From contig OZ251487.1 of NCBI GenBank assembly GCA_965242685.1, forward strand, positions 417,199 to 481,198: a DNA stretch of 64,000 nucleotides, given 5' to 3'. Source of the DNA: Gammaproteobacteria bacterium (GTDB lineage: Bacteria; Pseudomonadota; Gammaproteobacteria; UBA4575). A program made the translations under genes and the position numbers. The notes below the pieces were generated by a model that was given only the letters and a program-made list of their open reading frames with translations, had not been told where the DNA came from and did no database searches. Shown piece after piece: positions 21,520 to 42,278 of the stretch. Each line of letters starts with the position of its first letter. The first letter of the stretch is position 1.

Positions 21520-21723
21520 AACTAGGCACTCTTGAAGATAGGGGTTAAGTGATTTTTATAACGATAAGTAGGGCGGTGATTGTTAATTAATACCATAGTA
21601 TACCTTTAATTTAGAATAAAGATAGCAAAAATCTGCCGCCGCTTAAATTTTTTTGCGGGGAAGCATCCATTGTTTTGCTATACTTCCCATTCAAAAGAAA
21701 ATAAAAATTAGAAAACAAAAAAA

Positions 21724-22667: not shown

Positions 22668-22985
22668 TGCCCATACCGCTTTCTATCGTCTGTAAATACA
22701 AACACAAAATTATAGCATAGCCCGCACCGCAGTATTTTTTTGTTCTTGCGGATAAGTCGAAAAAATTGAAGTCGGTAAGCAAAATTGACACCGAAAAATT
22801 TTGACGTTTTCGCGTCACGCTTTGCCTGTTTTCTTGATACGCCCGCCTACCTCCCCATCAAACGGCTACACGTAACCTCATCCGTTGCCCGTGCAACATC
22901 CTTTTAAGGTTTGTGCCGGTCCCAAACTCGCGTAACCACTGCCGTGCCAGATCCGGGCAGTAGATCACCCCTCTCATAAGGAATA

Positions 22986-23079
22986 GCCCCTTCATTGGGG
23001 GTGATCTCCAAACACATCAAATATCGCATTGCGCACAACGTCGGGTGTAGTCCCCCTTCATTGGGGGTGATCTCCAAAC
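22986..23079 (+). CRISPR. Minimal CRISPR array: two 28-nt direct repeats (27/28 identical) flanking one 38-nt spacer
   Basis: Repeat 1 at 22986-23013 is gccccttcattgggggtgatctccaaac. Repeat 2 at 23052-23079 is cccccttcattgggggtgatctccaaac. Spacer at 23014-23051 is acatcaaatatcgcattgcgcacaacgtcgggtgtagt. The repeat has a CCCC-loop-GGGG hairpin and an AAAC 3' end like Cas13a direct repeats. The array lies 35 nt beyond the stop of the Cas13-like gene. Confidence 0.6.
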
Positions 23080-23114
23080 CATTGTAAAGCAAATATCCAT
23101 TTTTACACAACAAT

Positions 23115-26100: not shown

Positions 26101-26606
26101 GGTTGGCTAGGCTCTTTCCGATATTCTTTTTCATACAGGTGTTCGTATATCTTTCCCGCGATTTCTTCGGCCTCTTTGTCACCGATTTCGGCAGGTTTCT
26201 TGTCACCGACGAAGCGTCCATACCAACGGCCTTTTGGAGCTGGAGAATTCTTACAGTTTTCTTTCGGGTAAGGATGAATCTTTGACCACCACAACTTCCT
26301 GAGTTTTTCAAGCTCGTCGAAATTGTCCGCATTCTTTACCTTTAACAGACCGTTCTTTATCAAATAGCACCAGACGGCGTTACCGAGTGTCTCGCGCAGC
26401 TTGCGCTGTTCGGCGGAAGGTTTGCCGTTCCCACGGGGCTTGGCTGCGATCTTGTCAATGATGGATATCCATTGCTTAATGACGAGTTCAGGGTGTTCTT
26501 TTGCAAATTCTGCAACGTCCTTTGCATCCTTGTGGCCGGGATTTGGGCGGATTTTCCGTTTTCCTGTTGGGGTCTCGCTTCGACCGTATGGCTTGATAAT
26601 CAACAT
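23115..26606 (-). CDS. cas13a: Cas13a-like type VI CRISPR RNA-guided RNase (two HEPN R-x4-H motifs)
   Basis: 1163 aa. HEPN1 is ELRHAAFHF (R452/H457), encoded about 25236-25253. HEPN2 is SIRNKLMHF (R1019/H1024), encoded about 23535-23552. Size and motif spacing are close to LbuCas13a (1159 aa; R472/H477, R1048/H1053). The protein is Lys-rich and the gene AT-rich. A CRISPR-like mini-array is adjacent. Confidence 0.72.
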   Translation of the reverse strand: MLIIKPYGRSETPTGKRKIRPNPGHKDAKDVAEFAKEHPELVIKQWISIIDKIAAKPRGNGKPSAEQRKLRETLGNAVWCYLIKNGLLKVKNADNFDELEKLRKLWWSKIHPYPKENCKNSPAPKGRWYGRFVGDKKPAEIGDKEAEEIAGKIYEHLYEKEYRKEPSQPNKSKGLIAARAESITKNVMALPTGFSGGEYDWSDQDEKAYKEAGDVAGQIYRAAEGKKGKFSVRDVAPILYGQYGELFKGDDGEVLAVTEARDLYPRLFALHAAIKDTYTRILKKHNKKNVARILPQDMNKLFQLVKNKVRNRDLNGLVRLGRIIHYEAGKNGHAIDHWPESEAITNSHYRTSEGQAEIKRNEAFVRVWRYTIALGARTLKDWADPNNRIKEDILLNIKNDGVTDGNFCESAYLKKLPKLPLLFGKRNDYFKGDEDFKNQVLKLALNGWAELRHAAFHFKGRDRFIEALTNNLNNFPATIDATHKLLKHDFTKRNEQLIKDLKAAQVEKYYDQSKIDALIKAIVNAETSLSPLPRFNRVLARAENAWSKKPYLLHLPPPGKRDKLEDQPDKLCRYVTAKAIYERAFPAWLEKQTKQALNQWIKRAVKRATEDAKKLNKDELAVAKATDQVHLEEGQGIADFIDQLAARTASELRVQRGYDSDADKARQQAKYLDDLRCDVVAQAFKAYLKENQLNWVTDELKNECGSLDKALKKVPPDETKAIDWQAVLYFLIHLVPVDAIAQLRHQLSKWSILVRKSSIKDEKDEVVKPLAQLFSLYLDMHDAKFEGNETINIYDSELKDLFKSEELFRRACPESDTNTKKQLVPWRGLRELWRFGDLKPLMPIFRKHPITAENVNKLKLDESDESENKIAEQQKKREKLHDEWVKKRFSKEKEKDYRQTLKTIEKHRHFAAHVRLNNHVRLHRLLMRVLGRLTDYAGLWERDLYFVMLALISLSGKRPDDVFNSNGRKNLKDGQIVEAINTLRKSQKGDAKKIFEQLKQVFGKHFLDDRCEDYPRSIRNKLMHFNMLQSNKPDLNLTEAVNDTRKLMAYDRKLKNAVTRSIKEMLAREGLVLEWEMKGHRLTGATVKTRQATHLGNKVKEDLHGEKYIEMVADLFGGEAQLPDKTPGRKNQNRGKAEGTQKRKYQNRRKSHIHKHNPSQRKR

Positions 26607-26740
26607 ATGGTAATTATATACTAACTACGCTACAATATAAAAGCGTAATTTGCCGAGTAGACGGGTAGTGGAGAGATACCTGGACGGCAGTCATTTGAAA
26701 CTGACAGGTAAAAAATAATTATACGGGGGCACGTAACCCA

Positions 26741-27304
26741 ATGCGACAAGGTTTGTATCGAAGCATCGTGGTTGATCCGCCTTGGGATCAAGGCAAAACG
26801 GGGATTCGTTCCGCTCGTCCCAATCAGGGCGTTGATCTGGATTACCCTACGCTGACGCAAAACGAGATTTTAGAGATTGTTCGGCTGGATGAATGGGCTG
26901 CCGAGAATGCGTTTCTTTGGCTGTGGGCGACAAACAGCAGATCGCGCTCAAGCAAGAAGCCTATCCTTCAGCAGGCGTTTGAATTGATGGATGCTTGGGG
27001 GTTTCGATACTACACCATGCTTACATGGGATAAAAAAACCGGGCCTTGCCCATTCGGCCCTTATCAGATAACGACCGAACATTGTTTATTTGGCTATCGG
27101 GGGCAATGCAGGTTTGACAAACAATCTCTTGGCAAGATGAAAACCTGCTTTCATGCCCCCGTCACTCGGCACAGTGAAAAACCCGCGCTGTTTTACGATA
27201 ACGTCCGTAAATACTTTCCCTCCCCCAAGATTGACGTTTTTTCAAGAAGAACACATAGCGGCTTTGAAGGTTGGGGTTGGGAAGCCGAACAGGACGTTGC
27301 ATAG
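26741..27304 (+). CDS. MT-A70-family adenine N6-methyltransferase (DPPW motif)
   Basis: 187 aa; catalytic motif VVDPPWDQG near N-terminus; family size typical of small bacterial MT-A70 proteins; divergent from cas13a-like gene with 134-nt shared intergenic region. Confidence 0.8.
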   Translation: MRQGLYRSIVVDPPWDQGKTGIRSARPNQGVDLDYPTLTQNEILEIVRLDEWAAENAFLWLWATNSRSRSSKKPILQQAFELMDAWGFRYYTMLTWDKKTGPCPFGPYQITTEHCLFGYRGQCRFDKQSLGKMKTCFHAPVTRHSEKPALFYDNVRKYFPSPKIDVFSRRTHSGFEGWGWEAEQDVA

Positions 27305-28752: not shown

Positions 28753-28877
28753 GACGGTTACGCTTCAATCTGACTGATGAAATATCGGCAATTTCAAGGG
28801 GTAAGATGGTATAGTATACGTATAGTGCATTAAAAAGGTGAGGCTTCCTTAACAATCGTGAAATAGAGGGTTTAGCA

Positions 28878-29894
28878 ATGAAAGTAGAGGGTTTGGCAAT
28901 GAGATTCCGCACTGCCGTGACGGTTGCGGCTTTAGTATTGTTTGGTGCAGCGAATGACTTGCACGCCGACGATGTCCAAATTGGCCTTCAGTCCATATAC
29001 GTACCGTGGATCGTACAATTGGAAAATATCAAGGAACACGGTTTTGCCGGCAAGAATGTCGACTTCGTGAAAATCACCTCACCCGAAGAAGTGCTGGACG
29101 GTCTCGACTCGGGTGCCGTGGATATCGTGCTTGGGGGTAACGCGCTGGTCGCAGAGGGCTATAGCCGGGATATTGATCTGCAAGTTGTCTACATCTACGA
29201 CAATATCAACGATGCGGAAGCGCTGGTAGTGGATGATTCGATTACCGCACCCCAGGATCTAGTCGGCAAAACCATCGCAGTGCCCTTCAGTTCCACCACG
29301 CACTACCATCTGTTGTTTGCCTTGGAGCAGTTTAGAATCCCTACGGACGCTCTCACGATACTTAACCTGACACCACCGGAGATCGTCTCGGCTTGGGAAC
29401 GTGGCGATATCAACGGCGCGTTCATCTGGGACCCGACACTTGGGCGCATGAAGGAAACCGGGCACGTATTGTTGACTTCCAGAGATCTGACCAACTGGGG
29501 CAGGCCTACTTTCGACTCGATGATCGCATCGCGCACGTTTGCTGCGGAAAATTCCGATTTCGTTTGCCGGTGGGTCAAGATGTCGGCGGCGGCCGATGCC
29601 GACTATCGCATGAATCCGGCTACCTACGATCCGGGGACTGACAAGGCGATGGCAATTGCAAAGGGCAGCTCCGGTGATCCGGATCGCGTAGGCGAAGTGC
29701 TTGCACTGTACGAATATCCGACGTTGGAAGAGCAGGTATCCGCCACTTGGCTTGACGGTGGCGTACAGAGCGCATTACAGGCAACCGCCGAGTTCCTGAT
29801 GGCACAAGGCATACTTGACCGCCTGCCCGCCAGCTTTGCTGATGCCGCAACGCCGAAGTTTGCCCGAATGGTGCTTGACGGCGACTGCCGCTAA
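28878..29894 (+). CDS. ABC-transporter periplasmic substrate-binding protein, NMT1/TauA/SsuA (sulfonate/taurine) family, orphan
   Basis: 338 aa; signal peptide; TauA-like blocks (GGNALVAEGY, VGKTIAVPFSSTTHYHL); no permease/ATPase genes adjacent. Confidence 0.7.
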   Translation: MKVEGLAMRFRTAVTVAALVLFGAANDLHADDVQIGLQSIYVPWIVQLENIKEHGFAGKNVDFVKITSPEEVLDGLDSGAVDIVLGGNALVAEGYSRDIDLQVVYIYDNINDAEALVVDDSITAPQDLVGKTIAVPFSSTTHYHLLFALEQFRIPTDALTILNLTPPEIVSAWERGDINGAFIWDPTLGRMKETGHVLLTSRDLTNWGRPTFDSMIASRTFAAENSDFVCRWVKMSAAADADYRMNPATYDPGTDKAMAIAKGSSGDPDRVGEVLALYEYPTLEEQVSATWLDGGVQSALQATAEFLMAQGILDRLPASFADAATPKFARMVLDGDCR

Positions 29895-30052
29895 CGCCAC
29901 TTCAGCTAGACCCGCATCAAGCCACAAAGATTCACTCAATAAAAAACGCTGGCATTAGTGGCCAGCGTCGGGCCGGGGCACGAAAGCCACCGGTGGGGTG
30001 AGTAATATATTATATTAAACTGGCTGTAAGTCAAAGGAAACTTCACCTGGCA

Positions 30053-32290
30053 ATGGATCTAACCGACCGCGACAAGCAAGAGATTATCCGTCATCTTGAG
30101 GCGGACCAACCGTTGCCCGACCGGTATCGGTTTTTACTGTTTGACGACAAGCGGCAGGCGGAATTGGTATGGAACGGCAAGACCAACGAAGTATGTAACG
30201 TAGTATTGCCGTTTCAAACCATAGAACACGTCGACGAGCCGCGTGTCGAGAGTCCCGATGATCTCCCTTTAATGGACGACCTATTCGCCGTAGACGCACG
30301 CGGCCGACAGCTAAAGGGCTGGGAAAACAAGCTGATATGGGGCGACAACAGGCTGGTACTGTCCAGTCTCAAGGGCGGCGCCTTACGCGAGGAAATTGAA
30401 AAGCAGGGCGGCATCAAGCTCATCTACATCGACCCGCCGTTTGATGTCGGGGCGGACTTTTCCATGGACATTGAAATCGGCGGCGGAAACTTCACCAAGG
30501 CGCCGAGCGTATTGGAGGAGATCGTCTATCGGGATACCTGGGGGCAAGGTGCGGACTCGTTCATCGCCATGTTGTACGAGCGGTTGATCTTGATGCGCGA
30601 CCTACTGGCCGAAGACGGGAGTATTTACGTCCACTGCGATTATAGGATGAACGGCTATATCCGCCTGGTGTTGGATGAAGTGTTTGGGAAGGGTGCGGGT
30701 GCTGGCTATGTAAATGAGATTGTTTGGCAGGGTGCGATTGGGGAGACATCATCTAAAAACAAAAAATTTATCAAGTCCCACGAAACCATTTATTTATACC
30801 GCAAAAGCGGAGTGCTGTGGAATGAGATATTTCAAACATATAGCGAGGCCAGCCAAAGTTTATATCGTTACTCCGATGACAAAGGGCGTTACCGAATCGG
30901 ACCGACAAATAAACCCGGTACGGGGGGCTATTTCTACGATTTAGGTTACGGGGAAATATGCCCGCAAAGGGGATATAGGATGCCGATTGAGACCGCTCTC
31001 GCTTGGATTGAAAGTGGTGAGTTGATTATTGAAAAAGGGAAAGTACCCGGACGTAAGTTGTATATGGGTGAGGGGGTCAGATGTCGTGACGTTTGGGTGG
31101 ATATAAGAGCGACGCAAGGCAATGAATATTTGCGTTACCCCACCCAAAAACCCGAAGCCCTGTTGGAACGGATCATCAAGGCATCCAGCAACGAGGGTGA
31201 TGTGGTGGCGGACTTCTTTTGCGGTTCGGGCACGTTGGCGGCGGTGGCGGAGAAGCTGGGGCGCAAATGGATCTGCGGAGACTTGGGCAAGTTTGCCGTA
31301 CACACGACCCGCAAGCGGATGATCGGCGTCCAGCGCCGGTTGAAGGCCGAGGGCAAGGACTATCGCGCCTTTGAAGTCCTGAATCTCGGCAAATATGAAC
31401 GACAGCACTACATCGGCGTCAATGCCGGCTTGCATGAAGCGGGGCGCGCGACCCAACAGACGGCGAAAGAACGTGCCTTTGTCGATCTAATTTTGCGCGC
31501 GTACAAGGCCGAGCGGGTAGACAATTTCTCATGCTTTCACGGTAAGAAACAGGGCAGGCTGGTGACCGTGGGGCCGGTTAACCTCCCAATATCCCGTCAG
31601 TTTGTCGAGGAGATCGTTCAAGAATGTAAGAAAAAACACATCACAAAGGTAGACCTGTTGGGTTTCGAGTTTGAGATGGGCCTGTTTCCGCAGCGATTGA
31701 ACGAGGCAAAAGAACAGGGCATCGACCTTGTACCCAAATACATCCCCCGCGATGTATTCGACAAACGCGCCGTGGAGAGAGACCAGGTAAGGTTCCACGA
31801 CGTGGCGTTTATCGAGATCAAAACCCACGTGAAGGACGGAACGGTAGCGGTGGAACTCACCGATTTCTCCGTCTACTACCATCAGGGTTCGGTAGAAAAT
31901 GCCGAACAAACCCTGAGAAACAGAGGCAGTAAAGTGGTGGTGAAAGCGGGGCGGGTGGTGAAGGTATCCAAGGATCAACACGGCGCGATCACCCGTGAGG
32001 TGCTGACGAAAAAGTGGACGGATTGGGTAGACTACTGGTCGGTGGACTTCGACTACGAAAGCAAACGGGAAATCATCCGCGAACGGAACCAGGCGGGCGA
32101 ATGGGTAGAACGATGGACGGGCGACTACGTGTTTGAAAACGAGTGGCAAAGCTTCCGCACCCGCCAAGATCGGTCGCTGGAATGGACCACGCCCCCGCAC
32201 AAATGCCCGCCGGGAAACTACAAGATCGCCGTCAAGGTGGTTGACGTATTCGGTAACGACACCATGACGGTGGCGGAGGTAAAGGTGTGA
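30053..32290 (+). CDS. mod: Type III restriction-modification system methyltransferase subunit (Mod), adenine-specific
   Basis: 745 aa; catalytic motif IV YIDPPFDVGADF followed by motif I FFCGSGTLAAVAEKLG (beta-class order typical of Type III Mod); variable target-recognition middle region. Confidence 0.85.
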   Translation: MDLTDRDKQEIIRHLEADQPLPDRYRFLLFDDKRQAELVWNGKTNEVCNVVLPFQTIEHVDEPRVESPDDLPLMDDLFAVDARGRQLKGWENKLIWGDNRLVLSSLKGGALREEIEKQGGIKLIYIDPPFDVGADFSMDIEIGGGNFTKAPSVLEEIVYRDTWGQGADSFIAMLYERLILMRDLLAEDGSIYVHCDYRMNGYIRLVLDEVFGKGAGAGYVNEIVWQGAIGETSSKNKKFIKSHETIYLYRKSGVLWNEIFQTYSEASQSLYRYSDDKGRYRIGPTNKPGTGGYFYDLGYGEICPQRGYRMPIETALAWIESGELIIEKGKVPGRKLYMGEGVRCRDVWVDIRATQGNEYLRYPTQKPEALLERIIKASSNEGDVVADFFCGSGTLAAVAEKLGRKWICGDLGKFAVHTTRKRMIGVQRRLKAEGKDYRAFEVLNLGKYERQHYIGVNAGLHEAGRATQQTAKERAFVDLILRAYKAERVDNFSCFHGKKQGRLVTVGPVNLPISRQFVEEIVQECKKKHITKVDLLGFEFEMGLFPQRLNEAKEQGIDLVPKYIPRDVFDKRAVERDQVRFHDVAFIEIKTHVKDGTVAVELTDFSVYYHQGSVENAEQTLRNRGSKVVVKAGRVVKVSKDQHGAITREVLTKKWTDWVDYWSVDFDYESKREIIRERNQAGEWVERWTGDYVFENEWQSFRTRQDRSLEWTTPPHKCPPGNYKIAVKVVDVFGNDTMTVAEVKV

Positions 32291-33576
32291 AAACAAACAC
32301 GATACAACAGATTGAAGAACAGGTAAATCAAGTGACAGAAGCCTTGAAGGGCTTTGTTCTTCGTCGGCATGAAGAGGATCGCTATGGCAAGGAAGATGAG
32401 TACACGGCTCAATCCTTGAAGGCTGATATAAAGGCAATCCTCACGGACATACGTGGCTTGGTAAAAGCGCATAACAAGTTCGTGAGGCTGTCGACTTTTG
32501 TAGAAAGAGATCTGATACGTGATTCTCTGCAAAATATGTCTAGTTCACTAAATTCAGAAAATTATTCTAATGCTGCCCATTATCTGGAAAAAATAAAGGA
32601 TATTATTCGCAGTTATAACGTAAGAGGTTCATCGGAATCTGAGGAAGTTCTTAAGGAGAGACTTGCTCAGATCAATAGTAAATATACGGACGCCGAAGAA
32701 AATATCGATGAGATCAAAAGGGTCAAAGAAACAGCCGAGCAACAGGCGCAGCAGCTTCAATCCATAAAAGAACAGCTTGAGTTCATTGACGGCAGAATTT
32801 ACGAGTCACGAGAAAAAGCCGATCAAATCGAAAAGTTGCAGACTCAATCTCAGAGTAATAGCGATGATATACATAGTGTCTTTACATCCGCAAAAAGTCG
32901 CGAAGAAATTATCAACAGCTTTGTTCAACGGGTTGAAGAGAGACAAAAACAGTTAGATACGCAGGAACAATCCACCGCTGCGTATCAAGAGAAGCTGGAG
33001 TCGTTTCAGGAAGCGCATGAAGAAAAACTTGAAGCAGCAGAGAAGCTGATAGAAGAGGCGCGGGCGGCTCTTGAACTTACGACTGCGGCAGGGGTCAGTG
33101 CGGCATTCACTGCACGCTACAATGAGGAAAAGGAAAGGGACCAGGAGATGTTGGATCGTTGGTTGAGAGGAGCACTTTTATTTATGAGCATCGCTATAGG
33201 AATGGGGATCTGGGTGGTATTGGGCAATAAGGATATCGGGCTTGGCCTGGCGATATCTCGCATAACCATTATACCGGTCGTACTTTCCGGTGCCTGGTTT
33301 TGTGCCGCACAATATGTGAGGTATCGGAACATACGAGAGGACTATGGCTATAAAGCCGTTTTGTCCAAGTCCATGATAGCTTTCATGGATCACTTGCCTG
33401 AAGATGTAAAAAGGGATTATCTGAATACGGTTCTGAAGGAAATCCACAAGAATCCTCTGCGTAAAAGATACGATGATTCAGATAGGAAAAATATTAGGAC
33501 ACCAGACGATGCGCGGGTAGGCACTTCCGGGTCATCAGATGATTCAGATAGAAAAAATACTGGGGCATCAGATTAA
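32287..33576 (+). CDS. Coiled-coil protein with two C-terminal transmembrane helices, inserted between mod and res (possible accessory defense/abortive-infection effector)
   Basis: 429 aa; about 280 aa heptad-rich charged N-region (EEQ.., KEQLEFIDGRIYESREKADQIEKLQ), then LLFMSIAIGMGIWVVLG and ITIIPVVLSGAWFCAAQYV hydrophobic helices; start overlaps mod stop (GTGTGA); C-terminal DDSDRKN motif duplicated. Confidence 0.6.
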   Translation: MKTNTIQQIEEQVNQVTEALKGFVLRRHEEDRYGKEDEYTAQSLKADIKAILTDIRGLVKAHNKFVRLSTFVERDLIRDSLQNMSSSLNSENYSNAAHYLEKIKDIIRSYNVRGSSESEEVLKERLAQINSKYTDAEENIDEIKRVKETAEQQAQQLQSIKEQLEFIDGRIYESREKADQIEKLQTQSQSNSDDIHSVFTSAKSREEIINSFVQRVEERQKQLDTQEQSTAAYQEKLESFQEAHEEKLEAAEKLIEEARAALELTTAAGVSAAFTARYNEEKERDQEMLDRWLRGALLFMSIAIGMGIWVVLGNKDIGLGLAISRITIIPVVLSGAWFCAAQYVRYRNIREDYGYKAVLSKSMIAFMDHLPEDVKRDYLNTVLKEIHKNPLRKRYDDSDRKNIRTPDDARVGTSGSSDDSDRKNTGASD

Positions 33577-33706
33577 TCCCTTTCTACCCATCAGTACCAG
33601 GACGTTGACTTATCGGCAGATAGAGGAAGTGGTAAAGAAACAAACCGATGATCCGATCATTTATGCAGGTATCCCGCCGGTCACCTTGCTAAAATAGTGT
33701 TTTCCG

Positions 33707-36376
33707 ATGGCGCTCCACCCCAAATTTCCTGATTCTCCCCACGCCGTTCTCGATCCTGAAGTTCGCTGGTTTCCCGCCGATGAGACGGTGCGCGAGCAGA
33801 CGATGGACAAGTTGATGCCGCCACTGGTGGCGGAACTGCGGCGCAAGGTAAAGGAATTTCGAGACGCCGGCTATGCGGGCGCAAGCAATACCGGCAGGAG
33901 CTTGTTGAATTGGTGGTTCAAGGAATCGCACCCACAGCCACAATCGGACGGCGGCACGACGGAGTTTCGGTATTACTTCGCCCAGCGCGAGGCTATGGAG
34001 ACCATCATTTATCTGTATGAGGTGGCCGGGGCGAAGGATAAGTTTGACTTGATGCGCTTCGATTCCATCGGGCTGGTATCCACCGGCATGTTTGACGAGA
34101 CCTGGCGGCGTTACGTGATCAAGATGGCGACCGGCACCGGCAAGACTAAGATCATGAGTTTGGTGTTGGCGTGGAGCTTCTTCCACAAACTGTACGAAGA
34201 AGGCTCAAGCCTGTCGCGCAATTTTCTGATGATTGCTCCGAACATCATCGTGTTGGACCGCCTCTACAAAGATTTTCAGGGTTTGCGGATCTTCTATGAT
34301 GATCCGGTGATGCCCGACAACGGCTATGGAGGACAAAACTGGCGGGATGACTTTCAGCTAACGTTGCATTTGCAGGACGAGGTACAGGTGACGCACCCCG
34401 TGGGAAACATCTTTTTGACTAATGTCCATCGGGTTTATTGCGGCGAGGATATCCCGCCTTCGCCGGGAGACGAGAACACGATGGATTATTTTCTCGGCAC
34501 TCGTCCCGTCGGTGCGACCACCGATTCTAAAATAGACTTGGGAATGATCGTGCGCGACATTGACGAGTTGATGATCCTAAACGATGAGGCGCACCATATC
34601 CACGACGCGAAGCTCGCCTGGTTCAAGTCGGTTGAAGACATCCATAACCGGCTGCTGCAAAAGGGCGGCGAGTTGAGCTTGCAGGTGGACGTGACCGCAA
34701 CGCCGAAACACAATAACGGCGCGATCTTTGTGCAAACGATAGCGGATTACCCGTTGGTGGAGGCGATCTCTCAGAACGTGGTCAAACATCCGGTGTTGCC
34801 GGATGCGCCAAGTCAGGCAAGGTTGGAGGAAAGACAGAGCACAAAATTCACCGAGAAATACGCCGATTATCTTGATTTGGGCGTGACTGAGTGGCGCAAG
34901 GCTTACGGTGAACATGAGAAGCTCGGCAAGAAAGCGATCCTGTTCGTGATGACGGATGACACGAAAAATTGTGATGAAGTTGCCGGGTATTTGGAGAGTC
35001 ACTATCCCGATTTGCAAGACGCGGTATTGACCATTCATACCAAGAACAACGGCGAGATTTCCGAAGTGTCTCACGGCAAGAAGAAAGAAGAGCTTGAGGA
35101 ACTTCGCAAACAGGCCAACGAGATTGATTCACTGAAGAATCCTTACAAGGCCATCGTGTCGGTGCTGATGCTCAAGGAGGGCTGGGACGTGCGCAACGTC
35201 ACTACTATCGTCGGCCTGCGGGCGTATTCGGCCAAGAGCAATATCCTACCGGAGCAGACGCTTGGCAGGGGGCTGCGCAAGATGTATCGGAATGACACTG
35301 AGGAGAAAGTGAGTGTGGTCGGTACCGATGCCTTCATGGAGTTTGTGGAAGGCATACAGGCGGAAGGGGTGGAACTGGAGCGCGAGGCTATGGGAGAAGG
35401 CACTAAGCCCAAGGCGCCGCTGGTGATAGAGGTTGATAGTGAAAAGGATCTGGATGCGCTGGATATTGAAATTCCGGTACTGACGCCTCGTTTATATCGG
35501 GAGTACAAAAACCTGGCCGATCTGAACCTTGAAACAATGGAGTTTAAAATGCTGGAATATCGGCAGTTTAACGAAGAACAGCAGCGCGAGATCGTCTTCA
35601 GGGACGTGACTACGGGCGAGGTGACGCATATCACCGTGCTGGACAGCGCGGGGGTGGGCGATTACCGCAGCGTCATCGGCTATTTTGCGCAGACCATGAT
35701 GAGGGAGCTACGACTGGTAAGTGGCTATGATGCTTTATACGGCAAGGTCAAGGCGTTTATTCGGGATCACCTGTTCGGCAAAACGGTTGCGCTGGAATCT
35801 GCCAATACGTTGAGAAATTTGTCGGAGATGGTAGCCACCAAGACGGTGCTTGAGACTTTCAAAAAGGCGATCAATCACCTGATGGTACGGGAAAGGGAGG
35901 GTGCGGAGATTCATGATTCCATCAAGCTACGCCAGATGCGCCCGTTCGTGATAAAAGAGCGACAGTATTTATCTCCCCGCAAGAGTGTATTTAACCGGAT
36001 TGTCGGCGACAGTCGGCTTGAACTGGAGTTTGCCAAGTTTTTGGAGCGATGCAATGACGTATCCGCGTATGCCAAAAATTATCTGGCGGTTCACTTCAAG
36101 CTGGATTACGTAAATGCGAGTGGCGAACTTACCAATTATTACCCTGATTTTGTCGTCAAGCTGACCGATGGCCGCATGGTCGTCGTCGAGACCAAAGGGC
36201 GCGAAGGACTGGACGTACCGCGAAAAGTGGCACGCTTGAGGCGGTGGTGTGAAGACGTCAACGCGGTGCAGGACGTGACATGGAGTTTCGTCTACGTGGA
36301 TGAGGAAGGGTTTCACAAGTATTCACCCAAGTCTTTCGCGGGACTTTTGGCCGGTTTTCGGGAGTATAAAGGGTGA
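33707..36376 (+). CDS. res: Type III restriction endonuclease subunit (Res), SF2 helicase plus PD-(D/E)xK nuclease
   Basis: 889 aa; helicase motif I MATGTGKTKIM, motif II LNDEAHHI (DEAH), motif VI region; C-terminal nuclease motif YPDFVVKLTDGRMVVVETKGRE. Confidence 0.85.
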   Translation: MALHPKFPDSPHAVLDPEVRWFPADETVREQTMDKLMPPLVAELRRKVKEFRDAGYAGASNTGRSLLNWWFKESHPQPQSDGGTTEFRYYFAQREAMETIIYLYEVAGAKDKFDLMRFDSIGLVSTGMFDETWRRYVIKMATGTGKTKIMSLVLAWSFFHKLYEEGSSLSRNFLMIAPNIIVLDRLYKDFQGLRIFYDDPVMPDNGYGGQNWRDDFQLTLHLQDEVQVTHPVGNIFLTNVHRVYCGEDIPPSPGDENTMDYFLGTRPVGATTDSKIDLGMIVRDIDELMILNDEAHHIHDAKLAWFKSVEDIHNRLLQKGGELSLQVDVTATPKHNNGAIFVQTIADYPLVEAISQNVVKHPVLPDAPSQARLEERQSTKFTEKYADYLDLGVTEWRKAYGEHEKLGKKAILFVMTDDTKNCDEVAGYLESHYPDLQDAVLTIHTKNNGEISEVSHGKKKEELEELRKQANEIDSLKNPYKAIVSVLMLKEGWDVRNVTTIVGLRAYSAKSNILPEQTLGRGLRKMYRNDTEEKVSVVGTDAFMEFVEGIQAEGVELEREAMGEGTKPKAPLVIEVDSEKDLDALDIEIPVLTPRLYREYKNLADLNLETMEFKMLEYRQFNEEQQREIVFRDVTTGEVTHITVLDSAGVGDYRSVIGYFAQTMMRELRLVSGYDALYGKVKAFIRDHLFGKTVALESANTLRNLSEMVATKTVLETFKKAINHLMVREREGAEIHDSIKLRQMRPFVIKERQYLSPRKSVFNRIVGDSRLELEFAKFLERCNDVSAYAKNYLAVHFKLDYVNASGELTNYYPDFVVKLTDGRMVVVETKGREGLDVPRKVARLRRWCEDVNAVQDVTWSFVYVDEEGFHKYSPKSFAGLLAGFREYKG

Positions 36377-36464
36377 GGATGCCATACGATACGAGATGCC
36401 CCGCAAGCCAACATGAGCCGGCCATATTTAGAGGTGATATGATGGCGGCTACGGAAATAAAAAA

Positions 36465-37802
36465 ATGAATATCAAAAAACTGATCGTTGAGGATGTCCGC
36501 TGCTTTGCGGGCAGACAGGAACTTGAGATACGCCCCATCACTTTTCTAGTGGGTGAAAACAGTACCGGAAAGTCTACCGCCCTCGCTTGTTTGCAGACGC
36601 TGCTGGACATTATTAGTTTCCCGACTAATTTCCCGAGTAGGTTCCCGATTAGGTTCCCGTATGCCGACCTGGATTTCAATAATGAGCCTTATAATTTGGG
36701 GGCATTTGCCGATATTGTCAGGGTCTCAAGACCAAGGAAAGAGAGTTTTCGGTTGGGCGCTGAACTATTTCACGAGAAAGAAACTTTGGAATATTCTTTA
36801 ACTGTAACGGAAAGAGACGAAGGTTCTGAACCCATTATCCAGGAAATGAGGATGCTTTTTACCGATGGCAACGAAATTGTTCTCAAAAAAGATGATCGGC
36901 AAGTAAAAAATCAATCCAATAAAAGAAATTTTCAAATCCAGCATGTAGAAGGAGGTAAGAAAAAGTTTGTTATTATTCCACTAGGCTCACCTACTGTGAT
37001 GAGAGGTCTATTTATGGACTTATTTTATAGGGGATATAATGAGCAGGCTCTGACGTCAGAAGAAGAGGAACTACGTAATTTTTTGCAAAAGTACCGAACA
37101 GTACTTTCCTCTCGAAATTCTCCTAAGGCGCATAGTTTTGCACCGATTCGTTCCAAGCCGCAGCGTACGTATGACCCCATTAAAGAGGGTATCAGCCCTG
37201 AAGGCAGTGAAATGCCTATGGTGCTGATGAATATATCCGGAACGGGAGAGAAGCAATGGGGCACACTGAAAAAAAGACTGATCAGGTTTGGTAAATCTTC
37301 AGGCCTGTTTACGGATATCTATGTCAGAAAACTTGGAAAATCAAGCGACCCGTTCCAGCTACAGATCAAGGTCAGGGGGCCAAAGGTCAATCTTATAGAT
37401 GTGGGGTACGGCGTCAATCAAATCCTGCCTATTTTGGTACGTATATTTAACACTGAGAGAGAAGGTACAACTTTTTTAATGCAGCAACCGGAAGTGCATC
37501 TGCATCCCAAGGGTCAGGCGGAATTGTCTTCCCTATTGATCGAGATTGCTAAACAGCAGAAACAAAATTTTGTTATCGAGACGCACAGCGATTACATGGT
37601 TGACCGTGCGCGTATTGACATCAGGGACGGGAAAATACCGCCGGATGATGTCTCATTGATTTACTTTGAACCTTGCGGGGGATATGTCAAAGTGCACAAT
37701 ATCAAGTTTGATGAGCAGGGGAATTTAGAGGGTGCCCCGAACACCTTCCGACAGTTTTTTCTTGATGAGTCGGACAGATTTCTCGGGCTTGATGAAAGTT
37801 AG
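36465..37802 (+). CDS. AAA15/ABC-type ATPase (OLD/AbiEii-like ATP-binding protein)
   Basis: 445 aa; Walker A LVGENSTGKST; ABC-like Walker B/D-loop QQPEVHLHP and H-loop IIETHSDY; AT-rich. Confidence 0.8.
   Translation: MNIKKLIVEDVRCFAGRQELEIRPITFLVGENSTGKSTALACLQTLLDIISFPTNFPSRFPIRFPYADLDFNNEPYNLGAFADIVRVSRPRKESFRLGAELFHEKETLEYSLTVTERDEGSEPIIQEMRMLFTDGNEIVLKKDDRQVKNQSNKRNFQIQHVEGGKKKFVIIPLGSPTVMRGLFMDLFYRGYNEQALTSEEEELRNFLQKYRTVLSSRNSPKAHSFAPIRSKPQRTYDPIKEGISPEGSEMPMVLMNISGTGEKQWGTLKKRLIRFGKSSGLFTDIYVRKLGKSSDPFQLQIKVRGPKVNLIDVGYGVNQILPILVRIFNTEREGTTFLMQQPEVHLHPKGQAELSSLLIEIAKQQKQNFVIETHSDYMVDRARIDIRDGKIPPDDVSLIYFEPCGGYVKVHNIKFDEQGNLEGAPNTFRQFFLDESDRFLGLDES
36618..36665 (+). repeat. Tandem 12-nt repeat x4 inside ATPase gene (ttcccgactaat / ttcccgagtagg / ttcccgattagg / ttcccgtatgcc) encoding FPTN-FPSR-FPIR-FPYA
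   Basis: Directly visible in sequence; in-frame, preserves reading frame. Confidence 0.8.
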
Positions 37803-37805
37803 GCC

Positions 37806-38225
37806 ATGTGCATCATCCTGGATACCAACCTGTATGGAGCTTTTATTAATTCGAATAATGAAGACATGCAACCAGTGAGAGATTGGATGAATCGCAAAAA
37901 TGGAAAAATCGCTTATTCTCCGGTGGGGAAAATTGCGGAAGAACTAAAGGGGAAGATGAAGGGCAAGTTTGAGGTATATGAAAAGGCTGGAAAACTCAAA
38001 AGGTTTTCTAAGGAGGATGTAGAGCGAAAAAAAGAAGGATTGGAAGGTTTGATATCCGATGATCCGGATATCATAGCACTGGCTCAAGTCTCCAACGTTA
38101 AAGTATTGGTTTCAAGGGACAAAAAGTTACATAAAGATTTCACAAACACAAACATCATCGAGCAAGGAAAGATTTATCAAACGAAGAGGCATGAGCATCT
38201 TCTCAGAAAGGATACATGCCCGTAA
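37806..38225 (+). CDS. Small PIN-domain-like putative nuclease, translationally coupled to the upstream ATPase
   Basis: 139 aa; N-terminal ILDTN (first PIN acidic residue), SDDPDIIALAQ (PIN D-x-I-A motif), VLVSRDKKL (fourth acidic position); starts 4 nt after ATPase stop. Confidence 0.55.
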   Translation: MCIILDTNLYGAFINSNNEDMQPVRDWMNRKNGKIAYSPVGKIAEELKGKMKGKFEVYEKAGKLKRFSKEDVERKKEGLEGLISDDPDIIALAQVSNVKVLVSRDKKLHKDFTNTNIIEQGKIYQTKRHEHLLRKDTCP

Positions 38226-38290
38226 ATCCAACCGTTTGAGACTTTAAAGCAAAAACAGCAAGGCAGGCCGCAAGCCCCACTACTAAAACA

Positions 38291-39565
38291 TCATTCCGCC
38301 TGTTTCAAGGCCTGTTCAATGTCTTCCAGGATGTCGTCGATGTGTTCTATGCCGATGGACAGTCTGACCAGATCCTCGCTGACGCCGGCCGCGGCTTGTT
38401 CTTCCTTTGACAGTTGCCGGTGGGTCGTGGTGGCGGGGTGACAGGCCAGCGACTTGGCGTCGCCGATGTTTACGAGTCTGACTACCAGTTTGAGTGCGTC
38501 GATGAATTTCGTGCCGGCTTCCAGGCCGCCTTTGATGCCGAAACTGAGGATGCCCGAGGCGCGGCCATCAAAGTATTTTTGCACCAGGTGATGGTCTTCG
38601 TGCGTGGGCAGTCCGGCATAGCTTACCCAGGTTACGTTGGGATGCTTTTCCAGATATTGCGCGACGGCCAGCGCGTTTTCGCAGTGGCGGTCCATGCGTA
38701 CCGGCAGGCTTTCTATGCCTTGCAGGCTCAGGAAGCTGTTGAAGGGGGAAATCGCCGATCCCATGTTGCGCAGCGGCACGACGCGCACGCGCCCGATGTA
38801 GGCGGCCTTGCCCAGGGCCTCGGTGTAGACCACGCCGTGGTAAGAGGGATCGGGTTCGTTGAGCATCGGAAAGCGTTCCTTGTGCTCGCCCCAGGGGAAG
38901 TTGCCGGAATCGACTACGATCCCGCCGATGGAAGTGCCGTGTCCGCCCATGTATTTGGTGAGTGAATGTACGGCGATGTCCGCACCGAATTTGAATGGCC
39001 GGCACAGGTAGGGGGTGGGCACCGTGTTGTCGACGATGACGGGTACGCCGTGGTGATGGGCGACTTCAACGGTTTTTTCGAGGTCGATCACGTTGCCCGC
39101 CGGATTGCCCAGTGATTCGCAGAATACGGCCTTGGTGCGGTCATTGATGGCCGCCTCCATAGCGTCCGCGTCGCGGTAGTCTACAAAGCGTACTTCAATT
39201 CCCAGCTTGGGAAGGGTGTGGGCAAAGAAGTTGTAGGTGCCGCCGTACAGGGTGGCGACCGAAACGATGTTATCCCCCTGTTCGGCGATGGCGAAAATCG
39301 AATATGCGATGGCGGCCATGCCGGAGGACAGGCCCAATGCCCCCACGCCGCCTTCCATCGCCGCCACGCGCTGTTCCAGCACCGCGGTGGTGGGATTCAT
39401 GATGCGCGTGTAGATGTTGCCTTCCACTTTTAGGTCGAACAGGTCGGCGCCGTGTTGAGTATTGTCGAATGCGTAGGAAGACGTTTGGTAAATGGGGACG
39501 GCGACGGCCTTGGTCGTGGGTTCCGGCGTATAGCCGCCGTGTATGGCAAGCGTTTCTGTTTTCAT
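38291..39565 (-). CDS. metY: O-acetylhomoserine aminocarboxypropyltransferase / sulfhydrylase (PLP-dependent)
   Basis: 424 aa; N-terminus TLAIHGGYTPEPTTKAVAVPIYQTSSY and PLP-lysine region typical of MetY/Cys-Met metabolism enzymes. Confidence 0.9.
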   Translation of the reverse strand: MKTETLAIHGGYTPEPTTKAVAVPIYQTSSYAFDNTQHGADLFDLKVEGNIYTRIMNPTTAVLEQRVAAMEGGVGALGLSSGMAAIAYSIFAIAEQGDNIVSVATLYGGTYNFFAHTLPKLGIEVRFVDYRDADAMEAAINDRTKAVFCESLGNPAGNVIDLEKTVEVAHHHGVPVIVDNTVPTPYLCRPFKFGADIAVHSLTKYMGGHGTSIGGIVVDSGNFPWGEHKERFPMLNEPDPSYHGVVYTEALGKAAYIGRVRVVPLRNMGSAISPFNSFLSLQGIESLPVRMDRHCENALAVAQYLEKHPNVTWVSYAGLPTHEDHHLVQKYFDGRASGILSFGIKGGLEAGTKFIDALKLVVRLVNIGDAKSLACHPATTTHRQLSKEEQAAAGVSEDLVRLSIGIEHIDDILEDIEQALKQAE

Positions 39566-39591
39566 CGTTTCACCTCGTTGTCTTGTCGTCT

Positions 39592-39906
39592 TTACGCGCC
39601 GCCGTCAAGGCCGTGGGTGTGCGTGGCGTTAATGCGTATAAGTAATGGTTTGAACGGCAGTAAGGTCGGGTCGTTCTGTTCCACTATGGGCATGAATTTC
39701 AATGGTTCGTCGGAGAATTCGTAGTCGCCGTTCATGATCCGTTGATAGAGCTTTTTGATTTCGTTTTCCAACGGATCGAGGAAGATCAGTGCGTCACCCA
39801 TGAACTCTTCGTCAAACTCGATGGAGGCGCGCAGTTCTTCCACCTCGTAAACGGCTTGTTTTACCCAGTCAGTATATTCATCCAGTGTCTTGGCGCGGAT
39901 CATCAT
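39592..39906 (-). CDS. Hypothetical acidic small protein (104 aa)
   Basis: ORF track only; no family confidently recognised. Confidence 0.35.
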   Translation of the reverse strand: MMIRAKTLDEYTDWVKQAVYEVEELRASIEFDEEFMGDALIFLDPLENEIKKLYQRIMNGDYEFSDEPLKFMPIVEQNDPTLLPFKPLLIRINATHTHGLDGGA

Positions 39907-39915
39907 GATCAGCGT

Positions 39916-40158
39916 CTATTTACTGTGTTCGTCCCATTCTTCGGGAGTCAATGCCTTGATGCTCAAGGCATGTATCTCGCCACTGGCAATTTCCGTCTTC
40001 ACCGTTGCATATACTTGCTGGTGTTTTTTGACCGTGCTCATGTCCGCAAAGCCGGCACTGACCACAATGGCTTCATACTTGCCTTCGCTTCCCGTAACAA
40101 AGGCCTTGCAATCGGGCATTCCGGCTTCGATTCGTTTTTTTATTTCATCCGTGTTCAT
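39916..40158 (-). CDS. BolA-family protein (IbaG/YrbA-like)
   Basis: 80 aa; BolA signature region GEIHALSIKALTPEEW. Confidence 0.7.
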   Translation of the reverse strand: MNTDEIKKRIEAGMPDCKAFVTGSEGKYEAIVVSAGFADMSTVKKHQQVYATVKTEIASGEIHALSIKALTPEEWDEHSK

Positions 40159-40222
40159 GGCTGCATTTTACAATGTTTAGTCCGCAAAGATTTGCTCTTT
40201 CGCGCCCCCGTTGTGTATCGGT

Positions 40223-41356
40223 TCAGGGTGCGGCGTTTTCTTCCAGTAGTTGATCCAGTGTGTCGCCGATCAGTTCCCGTCTCCAGCTTTGTAAGACATC
40301 CGAAGGGCGTTGTCCACGAATTATTTTCTCTATCATGCCGCGGGTGGCCAGAAAGCTTGGCGCGAGGTTGAGTTCCCGGGCGCGTTCACGCACCCGTTGT
40401 AGGGCACATTTCATCAATCTGCGCTGTTCACGACTCAACGGGGCGGTGCGGAGGGTCGTCGGCCATTGTCGTTCGGGTATGCGGCGTGCCTTGTCTATAT
40501 TGCTGAGAAGGGCGTCCGAGTACAACGTGCGTTGTCGTCGAGTCAGTGCCTCGATGGTGGATAATGCCGCCGTGTTTGTCGGTTGTTCAATTGCCAGCGC
40601 ACGTAGTGACCTGTCACGCACGATCCATTGTCGTGGTTTGTTTTCCTTGACCGCCCGCCGCTCGCGCCATGTGGACAGCCGTTGTAACACCACCAGTTGT
40701 CGGGGGCTCAGTTTGCCGCTGCCCTTGATTGATTTCCAGGCGTCGTGCGGATCGAGTTTGTATCGTTCCGCGACACTCAGACGCCGGCATTCATCTTCGA
40801 CCCAGTGGGCGCGTTGGTATGATGTAAGCTCCCGCCTGAGATGATGATATATTGTGGCAAGGTATTTTACGTCGTCTGCGGCATATTGCAGTGCCTTGTC
40901 GGACAGGGGTCGGCGGTGCCAGGCCGTGCGGGATAAAGACTTGTCGAGAGTGATCCCGCATATTTTATCTACCAGGTACGCGTAGCTTACTTGTTCGCCG
41001 TAGCCTAGTGCGCTCGCGGCAATTTGTGTATCGAAGACGGGCGCCGGTATTTTGCCGTAGAGGTTGAAGAATACTTCCAGGTCCTGGCTCGCCGAATGGA
41101 ATACCTTGGTTATGGAGGGCAAACAGGTCAGCCCTTCAAGTATAGAGAGGTCTTTTATTGACAGAGTATCGATACAGGCTACCCTGTTATCCGTTGCCAC
41201 TTGAATCAGGCATAGACGCGGGTAATAGGTATTTTCGCGCATGAATTCGGTATCTAGTGCCAGCCAGTCCCGACCGGAAACGTCCGTGCAGAACGCCTGT
41301 AGCTCGCCGGTTGTCTGGATGACTTCAATCTTCATCGTCGGTATTTTCGTGCGCAT
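40223..41356 (-). CDS. rnd: Ribonuclease D (3'-5' exonuclease with HRDC domain)
   Basis: 377 aa; DEDD exonuclease motif LALDTEFMRENTYYPRLCLIQVA; HRDC region. Confidence 0.9.
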   Translation of the reverse strand: MRTKIPTMKIEVIQTTGELQAFCTDVSGRDWLALDTEFMRENTYYPRLCLIQVATDNRVACIDTLSIKDLSILEGLTCLPSITKVFHSASQDLEVFFNLYGKIPAPVFDTQIAASALGYGEQVSYAYLVDKICGITLDKSLSRTAWHRRPLSDKALQYAADDVKYLATIYHHLRRELTSYQRAHWVEDECRRLSVAERYKLDPHDAWKSIKGSGKLSPRQLVVLQRLSTWRERRAVKENKPRQWIVRDRSLRALAIEQPTNTAALSTIEALTRRQRTLYSDALLSNIDKARRIPERQWPTTLRTAPLSREQRRLMKCALQRVRERARELNLAPSFLATRGMIEKIIRGQRPSDVLQSWRRELIGDTLDQLLEENAAP

Positions 41357-42278
41357 GCTTTCAGCAAGGCCTTTGCAAGTATCCTTGTGGTTGATTGTAT
41401 TATGTTTGCCGCTTAGCGGTTGTACCGTACCCGCACAGAACTGGAAGTCGCCTTTTTTTCGTGACCACCCGCTCGTTGGAAAGATATGGGATACGCGGCA
41501 AGGCGCCTGGATTACGGAGCAACAACTGCATGGGGCGTTACTAGGGTATGACTACCTGTTATTGGGCGAGTCGCATGATAATATCGATCATCATATCGTT
41601 CAGGCGCGCCTGTTACGTTCCCTTGCTGTTGTCGGTGCTGAGCCGGTGGTGGTCATGGAAATGTTGCCCCAAGAGGCTTGGTCACGCCAGCCGCGTATCT
41701 GGGAGGATTTTCATGTCTTGCAGGCGCGGGCAAAAACATATGGTCCGGGTTGGCCGTGGGAGTTGTATGCGCCCATTCTGAAGGCGGTGGTACGACATCG
41801 GCTTGAATTGGTTGCCGGGAACGTCGGCGGTGAAATTCTGCATAAAAATGTCCCTCTCAACGTGAATGAGCGACTCGCTGAATACCCGATTGCGGCGGAT
41901 GATTTACAGCAGTTGCGGCAGGATATTGAAACTTCGCATTGTGGCTTTGCGAGCACCGCGCAGGTTCAATCCATGTTGTCGGTGCAATTGCGACGGGATC
42001 GGGCCATGGCGTCCGCGCTGATGGCAAGCCGGTCTCCCGCCGTGTTGATTGCGGGGAACGGTCACGTGCGCAGTGACTATGCGGTGCCGAAGCATTTGCG
42101 AGACGGGAACTATCTTTCTGTGGCATTGATTTCGGTCCTGCCGGGATGGTTCAGTCCGGAAGAGTATATGGACAAGCCGGGGTTGTTTGACGTATTGTAT
42201 TTTACGCCGAGCCATACCGATCAGGATGCATGCACGCACTTCAGAAAGCAGTTGGAGAGCTTGCGCCGTGATGAATGA
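41355..42278 (+). CDS. ChaN-family (haem-binding uptake, Tiki superfamily) lipoprotein
   Basis: ORF 41241 trimmed to MLSARPLQVSLWLIVLCLPLSGC (lipobox LSGC); conserved GESHDN and GNGH motifs of ChaN family. Confidence 0.7.
   Translation: MLSARPLQVSLWLIVLCLPLSGCTVPAQNWKSPFFRDHPLVGKIWDTRQGAWITEQQLHGALLGYDYLLLGESHDNIDHHIVQARLLRSLAVVGAEPVVVMEMLPQEAWSRQPRIWEDFHVLQARAKTYGPGWPWELYAPILKAVVRHRLELVAGNVGGEILHKNVPLNVNERLAEYPIAADDLQQLRQDIETSHCGFASTAQVQSMLSVQLRRDRAMASALMASRSPAVLIAGNGHVRSDYAVPKHLRDGNYLSVALISVLPGWFSPEEYMDKPGLFDVLYFTPSHTDQDACTHFRKQLESLRRDE

Follow-up and report, generated by a model that had tools for sequence, protein, structure and literature searches.

The gene pair reported here most closely resembles, in architecture, HEC-03 (Hma-embedded candidate 3) of Pseudomonas cichorii, for which phage protection has been validated (Payne et al., bioRxiv 10.1101/2024.01.29.577857). 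HEC-03 consists of a DUF3696-annotated ATP-binding cassette (ABC) ATPase (461 amino acids (aa), calculated from gene coordinates) followed by a 157-aa VapC-like PIN protein; its defence needs both genes, and the system is toxic when induced (10.1101/2024.01.29.577857). The pair analyzed here lies at 36465-38225 of a stretch of 64,000 nucleotides (nt) from a Gammaproteobacteria bacterium of the UBA4575 lineage (assembly GCA_965242685.1, contig OZ251487.1, positions 417,199 to 481,198, hereafter the window) and encodes a 445-aa ABC-type ATPase and a 139-aa protein with a predicted PIN fold. The pairing of the two genes is obligate, and they form a tightly conserved module whose best explanation is a self-contained two-gene system of the "ABC ATPase plus nuclease effector" class with the architecture of HEC-03. 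The architecture and its probable logic are known from HEC-03, Menshen, PARIS, and Septu, and the pair adds a sister family to these. The points that stand out are an unannotated PIN family, an invariant Q-Q Walker B dyad in the ATPase, and recurrent embedding in Type III restriction-modification (R-M) operons.

The second point of comparison is Menshen (NsnA-NsnB-NsnC; Millman et al. 2022; Li et al. NAR 2025, PMC12065111). Menshen requires NsnA, a ParB-DUF262 sensor, and its ATPase NsnB departs from the ABC consensus by a Walker B that is not D-E, an Arg for the Q-loop Gln, and GxG for SGG (PMC12065111). NsnC is made up of an inactive N-terminal PIN domain fused to a separate C-terminal nuclease, with extensive shuffling of its domains, and in AlphaFold 3 (AF3) models of the system an NsnB tetramer clamps the PIN-like domain with two of its DUF3696 tails (PMC12065111). 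The survey behind these results was anchored on NsnA (PMC12065111) and therefore could not have collected the family of the window. The pair consists of the following elements.

36465..37802, forward strand: ABC-type ATPase, 445 aa, ATG start, AAA_15/AAA_21 head and DUF3696-like C-terminal tail, similar to NsnB and the HEC-03 ATPase
37803..37805, forward strand: 3-nt spacer (GCC) from the ATPase stop to the PIN start
37806..38225, forward strand: stand-alone PIN-fold nuclease (predicted), 139 aa, ATG start, acidic active site intact

Pairing, co-inheritance, and distribution

An earlier sequence-only reading of the window had proposed this pair as a candidate defence or toxin module, and both open reading frames (ORFs) are present on one strand as it described. 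Its distance of 4 nt holds when counted from the last stop base to the ATG, and the spacer itself is 3 nt. The junction reads GAA AGT TAG gcc ATG, and the two ORFs share frame and strand.

A genome scan anchored on the PIN protein yielded 66 loci from at least 12 phylum-level lineages, and an ATPase homologue was found directly upstream on the same strand in all 66. Anchoring on the ATPase instead gave 80 metagenome loci at 34-54% identity from soil, sediment, and freshwater. A PIN-family ORF follows directly downstream in 76 of them; in the remaining four, less than 50 nt of contig is left after the ATPase stop. The order ATPase then PIN thus occurred in 142 of 146 loci overall, the remaining four being the contigs that stop before the PIN position. 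The spacing was tight, with a median of 3 nt over 134 pairs and at most 10 nt in 128 of them. Pairwise identities of ATPase and PIN were strongly correlated (Mantel r 0.85, reached by 0 of 999 permutations), which means that the pair is inherited and transferred as a unit and that partners are not shuffled. Since both proteins belong to conserved families, the feature lies far beyond chance.

The distribution of the pair is patchy and phylogenetically incongruent. Many of the taxa named in the genome scan (Poribacteria, Entotheonella, Binatia, Caldilineaceae) are ones that we take to be typical sponge symbionts. Two pairs occur in tandem in locus L033, and L059 has two divergent pairs that are oppositely oriented; several Mutator-family transposase genes border the pair of L017. 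Pseudogenised copies were found in L018, L045, L056, L061, and L064. No relatives were found on 2.9 M viral contigs, which is neutral as evidence.

Conserved features of the ATPase

The ATPase matched AAA_15 (1.9e-22) and AAA_21 (6.5e-14) in Pfam, with a weak DUF3696 match (E 0.042) at residues 391-428. Its best-scoring PADLOC models were PDC-M55A (5.1e-44, full length) and Menshen NsnB (1.9e-42). The HEC-03 ATPase model followed at 1.9e-30, covering only the C-terminal residues 272-428, and weaker matches were obtained to AriA (1.1e-24), Old (1e-12), GajA, and PtuA. The model behind the HEC-03 match is PDLC04148 of PADLOC-DB v2.0.0 (458 positions), which is labelled "HEC-03B" there, and the preprint names the ATPase HEC-03A and the PIN protein HEC-03B. 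NCBIfam housekeeping models scored far under cutoff, RecF (TIGR00611) reaching E 0.0046 against a cutoff of 172 bits. The family is large, with more than 6,000 homologues. An AlphaFold 2 (AF2) model had a mean predicted local distance difference test score (pLDDT) of 74.7 and a predicted template modelling score (pTM) of 0.80, and Foldseek placed it with Rad50/SMC heads and the defence ATPases OLD, PtuA, and GajA.

Motif conservation was computed over 143 aligned family ATPases, with counts made on the sequences without a gap at each position. The motifs that the sequence-only reading had quoted are present at residues 30-38, 340-348, and 372-375, and the conserved segments are as follows.

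36552..36578, forward strand: Walker A / P-loop G30-E-N-S-T-G-K-S-T38; G30, N32, S33, G35, and K36 in 135/135 sequences with a residue
37404..37412, forward strand: ABC signature variant G314-Y-G316 (GxG for SGG); G314 and G316 in 139/139, Y315 in 138/139
37482..37508, forward strand: Walker B region Q340-Q341-P-E-V-H-L-H-P, with Q-Q (37482-37487) for the canonical D-E dyad; Q340 in 140/140, Q341 in 139/140 (one H)
37578..37589, forward strand: H-loop / Sen1 motif E372-T-H-S375, 98% conserved; family form ETHSD
37635..37799, forward strand: C-terminal DUF3696-like tail, two strands and a helix (426-439), matched by Pfam DUF3696 as above; AF2 confidence high here

The family consensus reads GENS[TS]GK[ST]T for Walker A and L-x-Q-Q-P-E-V-H-L-H-P for Walker B. 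R229, Q340-Q341, and G314-Y-G316 are kept in at least 97% of sequences. By our own reading of the alignment, R229 appears to occupy the Q-loop position, with Arg for Gln. At the Walker B dyad, E-Q is found in the HEC-03 ATPase and E-N in NsnB, which suggests for the whole DUF3696 clade that ATP is bound without efficient hydrolysis. By analogy with the behaviour of E-to-Q mutants of ABC ATPases in general, the invariant Q-Q dyad suggests that the window ATPase is a switch that binds ATP and hydrolyses it slowly, and not a motor.

Conservation extends into the tail, where V396, D416, P425, R429, F431, F432, and E435 are each at least 92% conserved. This tail may be the docking site of the PIN protein, since the AF3 models of NsnB-NsnC (PMC12065111) place the PIN-like domain at the tails and the conserved tail of the window fits the same mode.

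The PIN-fold partner

Searches of the small protein of the window against Pfam, PADLOC, NCBIfam, PHROGs, and PDB sequences gave nothing significant, and the family profile found nothing among PDB sequences. A word-indexed search returned 103 homologues. An exhaustive profile search recovered 1,786 PIN clusters at 50% identity, 1,187 of these at E <= 1e-10. Nearly all members are stand-alone proteins of 135-155 aa. When 51 relatives were scanned singly, 23 matched Pfam PIN (best 3.6e-7) and eight matched PIN_3. The AF2 model built from the family alignment was a single domain with a pLDDT of 90.5 and a pTM of 0.85. Its best Foldseek matches in PDB were VapC2, VapC-Rv0301, PH0500/1v96 (template modelling score 0.62), VapC4, VapC11, FitB, and HARP RNase P, every one a PIN domain, at a probability of ~1.0. 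Residue conservation was computed over 126 family members.

37821..37823, forward strand: predicted catalytic Asp D6 at the end of strand 1, 96% conserved
37941..37943, forward strand: predicted catalytic Glu E46, 99% conserved
38061..38063, forward strand: predicted catalytic Asp D86 in the motif S84-D/N-D86, 98% conserved (S84 97%)
38118..38138, forward strand: acidic residues D105 and D111, 92% and 95% conserved

The motifs ILDTN and DPDIIALA, from which the PIN fold had first been suspected, are present at residues 4-8 and 86-93. The PIN assignment is supported by the matches of the other family members, the predicted fold, and the conservation of these residues, so that the suspected fold withstood structure prediction. 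The predicted active site is under purifying selection. Outside the canonical PIN signature, C2 (37809-37811), H129 (38190-38192), and the penultimate C138 (38217-38219) are 93, 87, and 95% conserved, respectively, and could form a metal site or a disulfide. A few family members weakly matched the PADLOC candidates PDC-M11 and PDC-M12, which were set aside as neither holds the ABC ATPase family. Annotation pipelines leave the PIN protein "hypothetical", and the PADLOC v2 models do not match it. A PADLOC scan had been proposed as a check of both proteins, and it linked the ATPase to defence ATPase models and left the small protein without a match.

Relation to described systems

The pair shares with HEC-03 the arrangement of two adjacent, co-directional genes in an operon, in which an ABC ATPase of about 450 aa comes first and a VapC-like PIN protein of about 140-160 aa follows. 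Like HEC-03, it is found embedded in a defence system based on DNA modification, which is Hma there and Type III R-M here. BLASTP aligned the two ATPases at 28% identity over 174 aa (E 2e-20) in the C-terminal half, with a second high-scoring segment pair at the P-loop. Both have the P-loop, the segment "LDF..Y.NLG.F.D.V", the GxG signature, and a non-canonical Walker B (EQPE in HEC-03 versus QQPE in the window). The PIN proteins are of the same VapC-like fold class, and both end in a conserved Cys-Pro. The middle insert of the window ATPase differs, as the HEC-03 ATPase model of PADLOC aligns only to the C-terminal part given above. Moreover, HEC-03 has been assayed experimentally, whereas the family of the window is known from sequence and models. 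The pair was not accepted as HEC-03 by sequence, as the PIN family is unrelated.

The window ATPase matches NsnB of Menshen almost end to end (profile positions 2-332 of 345). It shares the Walker B that is not D-E, R229 at the apparent Q-loop, GxG for SGG, and a DUF3696 tail, here a weak match. In both systems, the downstream partner has a PIN fold, which in NsnC is the N-terminal domain. In contrast to NsnC, the partner in the window is a stand-alone 139-aa PIN protein with an intact D-E-D-D set (92-99% conserved), and it co-evolves with the ATPase, whereas the NsnC domains are shuffled. No NsnA gene was found in the window: the genes upstream encode Mod, a coiled-coil/transmembrane (TM) protein, and Res without a DUF262 match. 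Likewise, DUF262 did not rank in the top 25 Pfam families by frequency when 135 immediate neighbours of the pair were tallied across genomes. The NsnC model of PADLOC was matched neither by the window PIN nor by its family members. Canonical Menshen was consequently rejected on gene content, with no NsnA and with a PIN protein that is stand-alone and, by its residues, catalytically intact.

Further systems share single aspects. In PARIS (AriA-AriB), Septu (PtuA-PtuB), Gabija, and OLD-family systems, a nuclease effector is likewise controlled by an oligomerising AAA_15-type ABC ATPase, but their effectors are Toprim/DUF4435 or HNH proteins and not PIN, and the window ATPase differs by its DUF3696 tail and Q-Q Walker B. 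Pfam and PADLOC scans of the pair gave no Toprim or HNH match. In fold and acidic tetrad, the window PIN is closest to the VapC toxins of type II toxin-antitoxin (TA) systems. In contrast to VapBC, the upstream gene is a 445-aa ABC ATPase, a small DNA-binding antitoxin of VapB type (AbrB/RHH/HTH/PHD) is absent, and C2, H129, and C138 lie outside the canonical VapC signature. For the window ATPase, the PADLOC model with the best score was that of PDC-M55, an untested PADLOC candidate with a three-gene cassette (FAM_00005 >> FAM_02935 >> FAM_00004). The "A" position of this cassette is taken by FAM_00005, a generic family of ABC ATPases common to HEC-01, PDC-M07, and PDC-M56. This candidate was rejected because the A family is generic, the partner models are unmatched by the PIN protein, and a third gene is missing.

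Genomic context and Type III R-M embedding

The pair stands downstream of a Type III R-M operon, as the sequence-only reading had noted. Pfam and PADLOC confirmed Mod and Res.

30053..32290, forward strand: Type III R-M Mod methyltransferase, 745 aa; N6_N4_Mtase 1.7e-41, PADLOC MTase_III 7.4e-111
32287..33576, forward strand: protein with a coiled coil and two C-terminal TM helices (2-TM), 429 aa, between mod and res; low GC content like the pair
33707..36376, forward strand: Type III R-M Res helicase-nuclease, 889 aa; ResIII 9.7e-15, weak RE_endonuc, PADLOC REase_III 6.6e-21

A gap of 88 nt on the same strand separates res from the ATPase gene. GC content was 0.437 in the ATPase gene and 0.395 in the PIN gene, versus 0.53 in mod and res, 0.55-0.59 in the flanking host genes, and 0.51 in the whole window, in agreement with the earlier description of the pair as AT-rich.

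Among the 66 genomes, 20 carry the pair inside or beside a Type III R-M system homologous to that of the window. The order is mod-ATPase-PIN-res in 12 loci, each from a species-level genome. In the other eight, the pair is directly adjacent to a related mod or res on the same strand, with the order ATPase-PIN-res...SLATT/DUF4231...mod in four, ATPase-PIN-mod-TIR(CAP12)-AAA_15-x-res in three, and a degraded arrangement in one. Immediate neighbours vary between genomes, and the 135 neighbours comprised 112 Pfam families. Away from R-M genes, they included sulfatases, PhyH dioxygenases, oxidoreductases, ABC permeases, major facilitator superfamily transporters, thiamine pyrophosphate enzymes, TonB receptors, UvrB, and Fur, with occasional Mutator transposases. 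These contexts show an autonomous cassette that moves horizontally, with one clade that habitually rides in the cargo slot of a Type III R-M system. The defence island that had been proposed holds for the window, where the pair is adjacent to R-M genes. It does not hold for the family, in which most pairs are solo among metabolic genes and one clade is associated with R-M.

The published "guilt-by-embedding" survey included Hma, BREX, DISARM, and Type I R-M and left out Type III. The present family, if it is active, extends the principle to operons of that type. In the clade related to the window's R-M system, the slot that lies between mod and res, or beside them, is variable. Its fillings differ by genome and include the ATPase-PIN pair, a DUF4231/SLATT 2-TM protein, a CAP12-type TIR with a second AAA_15 and a 181-aa protein, and AAA_15 with MNT-HEPN. 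Such intervals were found in L002, L004, L008-L011, L015, L018, L020, L024, L031, L033, L042-L044, L057, L062, and L148. Since the interval repeatedly holds differing defence cargo, it is a place to look for further systems, including the coiled-coil/2-TM protein of the window.

The locus is rearranging on a short timescale. In L147, a close relative of the window organism (85-91% nucleotide identity, compared with window positions 28832-41787), the NMT1-like gene is directly joined to the gene of the pyridoxal phosphate (PLP) enzyme, corresponding to 29888|38279 of the window. The island lies upstream, across NMT1, in a different order: ATPase-PIN-coiled-coil, then genes for a Sigma70_r4-containing and a HATPase_c_3 protein. 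At 5943-6045 of L147, a duplicated fragment of ~100 nt from the 3' end of the PLP-enzyme gene was found. A description of L147 as a clean "empty site" was therefore softened, as the island just across NMT1 and the small duplicated fragments point to rearrangement and not to a clean insertion.

Proposed function and alternative explanations

The pair is probably, with moderate confidence, a HEC-03-like abortive-infection or toxin module: the ATPase would keep the PIN RNase in check and then release or activate it. This reading draws on HEC-03, whose homologous ATPase and PIN architecture protects against phages, and on the AF3 models of Menshen. Further support comes from the two domain identities, the obligate and closely spaced pairing, the co-inheritance, the conserved catalytic and ATP-binding residues, and the occurrence in at least 12 phylum-level lineages. 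It is also favoured by the R-M embedding alongside other defence cargo (SLATT, CAP12-type TIR, second AAA_15), by the low GC content relative to R-M and host genes, by the altered position and order in the close relative, and by the transposases in L017. The candidate ATPase-nuclease module first proposed from the sequence is thereby supported, with HEC-03 as the closest named system in which an ABC ATPase and a PIN protein have been validated, and Menshen closest through its NsnB ATPase. We infer for the pair a physical complex, an RNA substrate, a trigger, and antiphage activity. The ATPase would form ATP-dependent oligomers (a dimer of dimers), whose C-terminal DUF3696-like tails would grip the PIN protein so that its RNase site stays inactive or sequestered. 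On a phage-derived cue, which the ATPase would sense by its variable insert or by a shift in nucleotide state, the PIN protein would be released or activated, and it would then cleave an essential RNA (tRNA, rRNA, or mRNA, like VapC-type PINs) and abort the infection.

Several results weigh against this reading. Homology to the HEC-03 PIN was not detected beyond a D...D motif of ~30 residues (hhalign probability 27% over 40 columns; 8 bits in hmmsearch with the 126-sequence profile), and the HEC-03 models in PADLOC were matched by 0 of the 51 PIN family members. Because the PIN protein has no PADLOC match and shares only that motif with the HEC-03 PIN, function would be carried over by architecture and not by orthology. 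Related R-M genes were missing at 46 of the 66 genome loci, and no related Mod or Res was found in any of the 23 long metagenome loci. Apart from that of the R-M-associated clade, the surroundings of the pair lack defence genes and are mostly metabolic or housekeeping. Finally, the Q-Q Walker B could mean that ATP hydrolysis is wholly unused.

The same solo insertions among housekeeping genes at variable sites would suit a selfish addiction module, in which a VapC-like PIN toxin is held by an ATPase in place of VapB and stabilises the host DNA segment, for instance the R-M operon, without dedicated phage sensing. The VapC-like fold with its catalytic residues, the tight bicistronic layout, the tandem or multiple copies, the pseudogenised copies, and the toxicity of HEC-03 on induction all agree with such a module. 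Type II TA antitoxins, however, are small DNA-binding proteins, and a large ATPase as the first gene with the toxin second, together with a 445-aa ATP-binding partner, is atypical for this class. The strictly conserved ATP-binding motifs imply a regulated switch and not a simple plug, and the homologous architecture of HEC-03 does protect against phages. We regard pure addiction as unlikely, although worth keeping in view; a TA function is compatible with a role in abortive-infection defence. A housekeeping role in RNA processing or DNA repair, with a RecF/Rad50-like ATPase and a PIN/FEN-like nuclease, is already disfavoured and appears very improbable. The ATPase model does resemble Rad50/SMC heads, and the PIN fold is shared by RNase P (HARP) and ribosome-biogenesis nucleases. 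Against this stand the patchy, incongruent distribution with positions that vary even between close relatives, the unconserved neighbours, the pseudogenised copies, and the low GC content, and neither a coiled-coil insertion nor an Mre11-type partner was found. The best profile matches are to defence-system ATPases and not to RecF, so the family is of the AAA_15/DUF3696 defence type with varied neighbours and not a housekeeping ABC/RecF family with conserved ones.

Dependence on the host R-M system was weighed in two forms. The pair could be an accessory that works only with Mod and Res, either as a PARIS-like anti-restriction sentinel or as a second nuclease on restricted targets. This is suggested by the 12 mod-ATPase-PIN-res loci and the eight directly adjacent ones on the same strand, and by the short co-directional gap to res in the window. 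PARIS, another pair of ABC ATPase and nuclease, is triggered by the anti-restriction protein Ocr. The related R-M system is missing, however, at the 46 genome and all 23 long metagenome loci, and the pair is therefore autonomous in most lineages. Furthermore, the mod-res slot carries unrelated cargo elsewhere (SLATT, TIR with AAA_15, MNT-HEPN, the coiled-coil protein), which points to a cargo hotspot rather than a dedicated partnership, and the pair is unlike mod and res in GC content. We thus consider an accessory role improbable. A bolder version, which we hold to be a long shot, makes the pair a sentinel for its host R-M system, co-transcribed from the mod-res slot. The ATPase would detect phage anti-restriction factors or R-M loss and release the PIN RNase, the family would represent the ancestral active state of the inactive-PIN adaptor of Menshen, and the Q-Q Walker B would be a non-hydrolysing, ATP-gated latch. 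If this were true, the pair would be the Type III R-M counterpart of PARIS.

If the HEC-03-like module is active, it represents a widespread new branch of immune systems built from an ABC ATPase and a nuclease, with ~1,800 PIN clusters at 50% identity that lack a Pfam or PADLOC model. The family would then also be a natural minimal comparison for HEC-03 and Menshen, as it combines the same ATPase scaffold and DUF3696 tail with a stand-alone, intact PIN protein.

Other features of the locus

Housekeeping genes border the island: upstream lies the gene of an NMT1-like binding protein, and downstream are those of a Cys/Met PLP enzyme, BolA, and RNase D. Promoter and terminator scans of the locus stayed at chance level, no Rfam families were found within the island and no tRNA genes at its edges, and terminal repeats or target-site duplications at the block boundaries were not above chance.

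The 429-aa protein between mod and res has a coiled coil in its N-terminal part and two TM helices in its C-terminal part, and the first 4 nt of its gene overlap the end of mod. It matched no Pfam family and had only weak PADLOC matches, the best of which (LmuB, 2.6e-06) was taken to reflect coiled-coil composition. Its family comprises 64 homologues of ~420 aa, and with a GC content of 0.436 the gene resembles the ATPase-PIN pair and differs from the R-M genes. Elsewhere, the family occurs in Type I R-M (HsdS-HsdM-Fic-HsdS-X-DUF3800-HsdR; L149/L150) and in an island with Type III R-M and MNT-HEPN (L148). The protein is a candidate R-M-embedded defence or membrane effector. At the 3' end of its gene, a 35-nt direct repeat (33472-33506 and 33538-33572), with 86% identity between copies spaced 66 nt apart, gives the protein a repeated acidic "DDSDRKN" peptide at its C-terminus.

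Just upstream of the island, 20146-27304 may be a second variable or defence-like region. It holds a 457-aa ORF (20146-21519, reverse strand) and a 1163-aa ORF (23115-26606, reverse strand), both without a Pfam match, and a 187-aa ORF at 26741-27304 that resembles an MT-A70-type methyltransferase.

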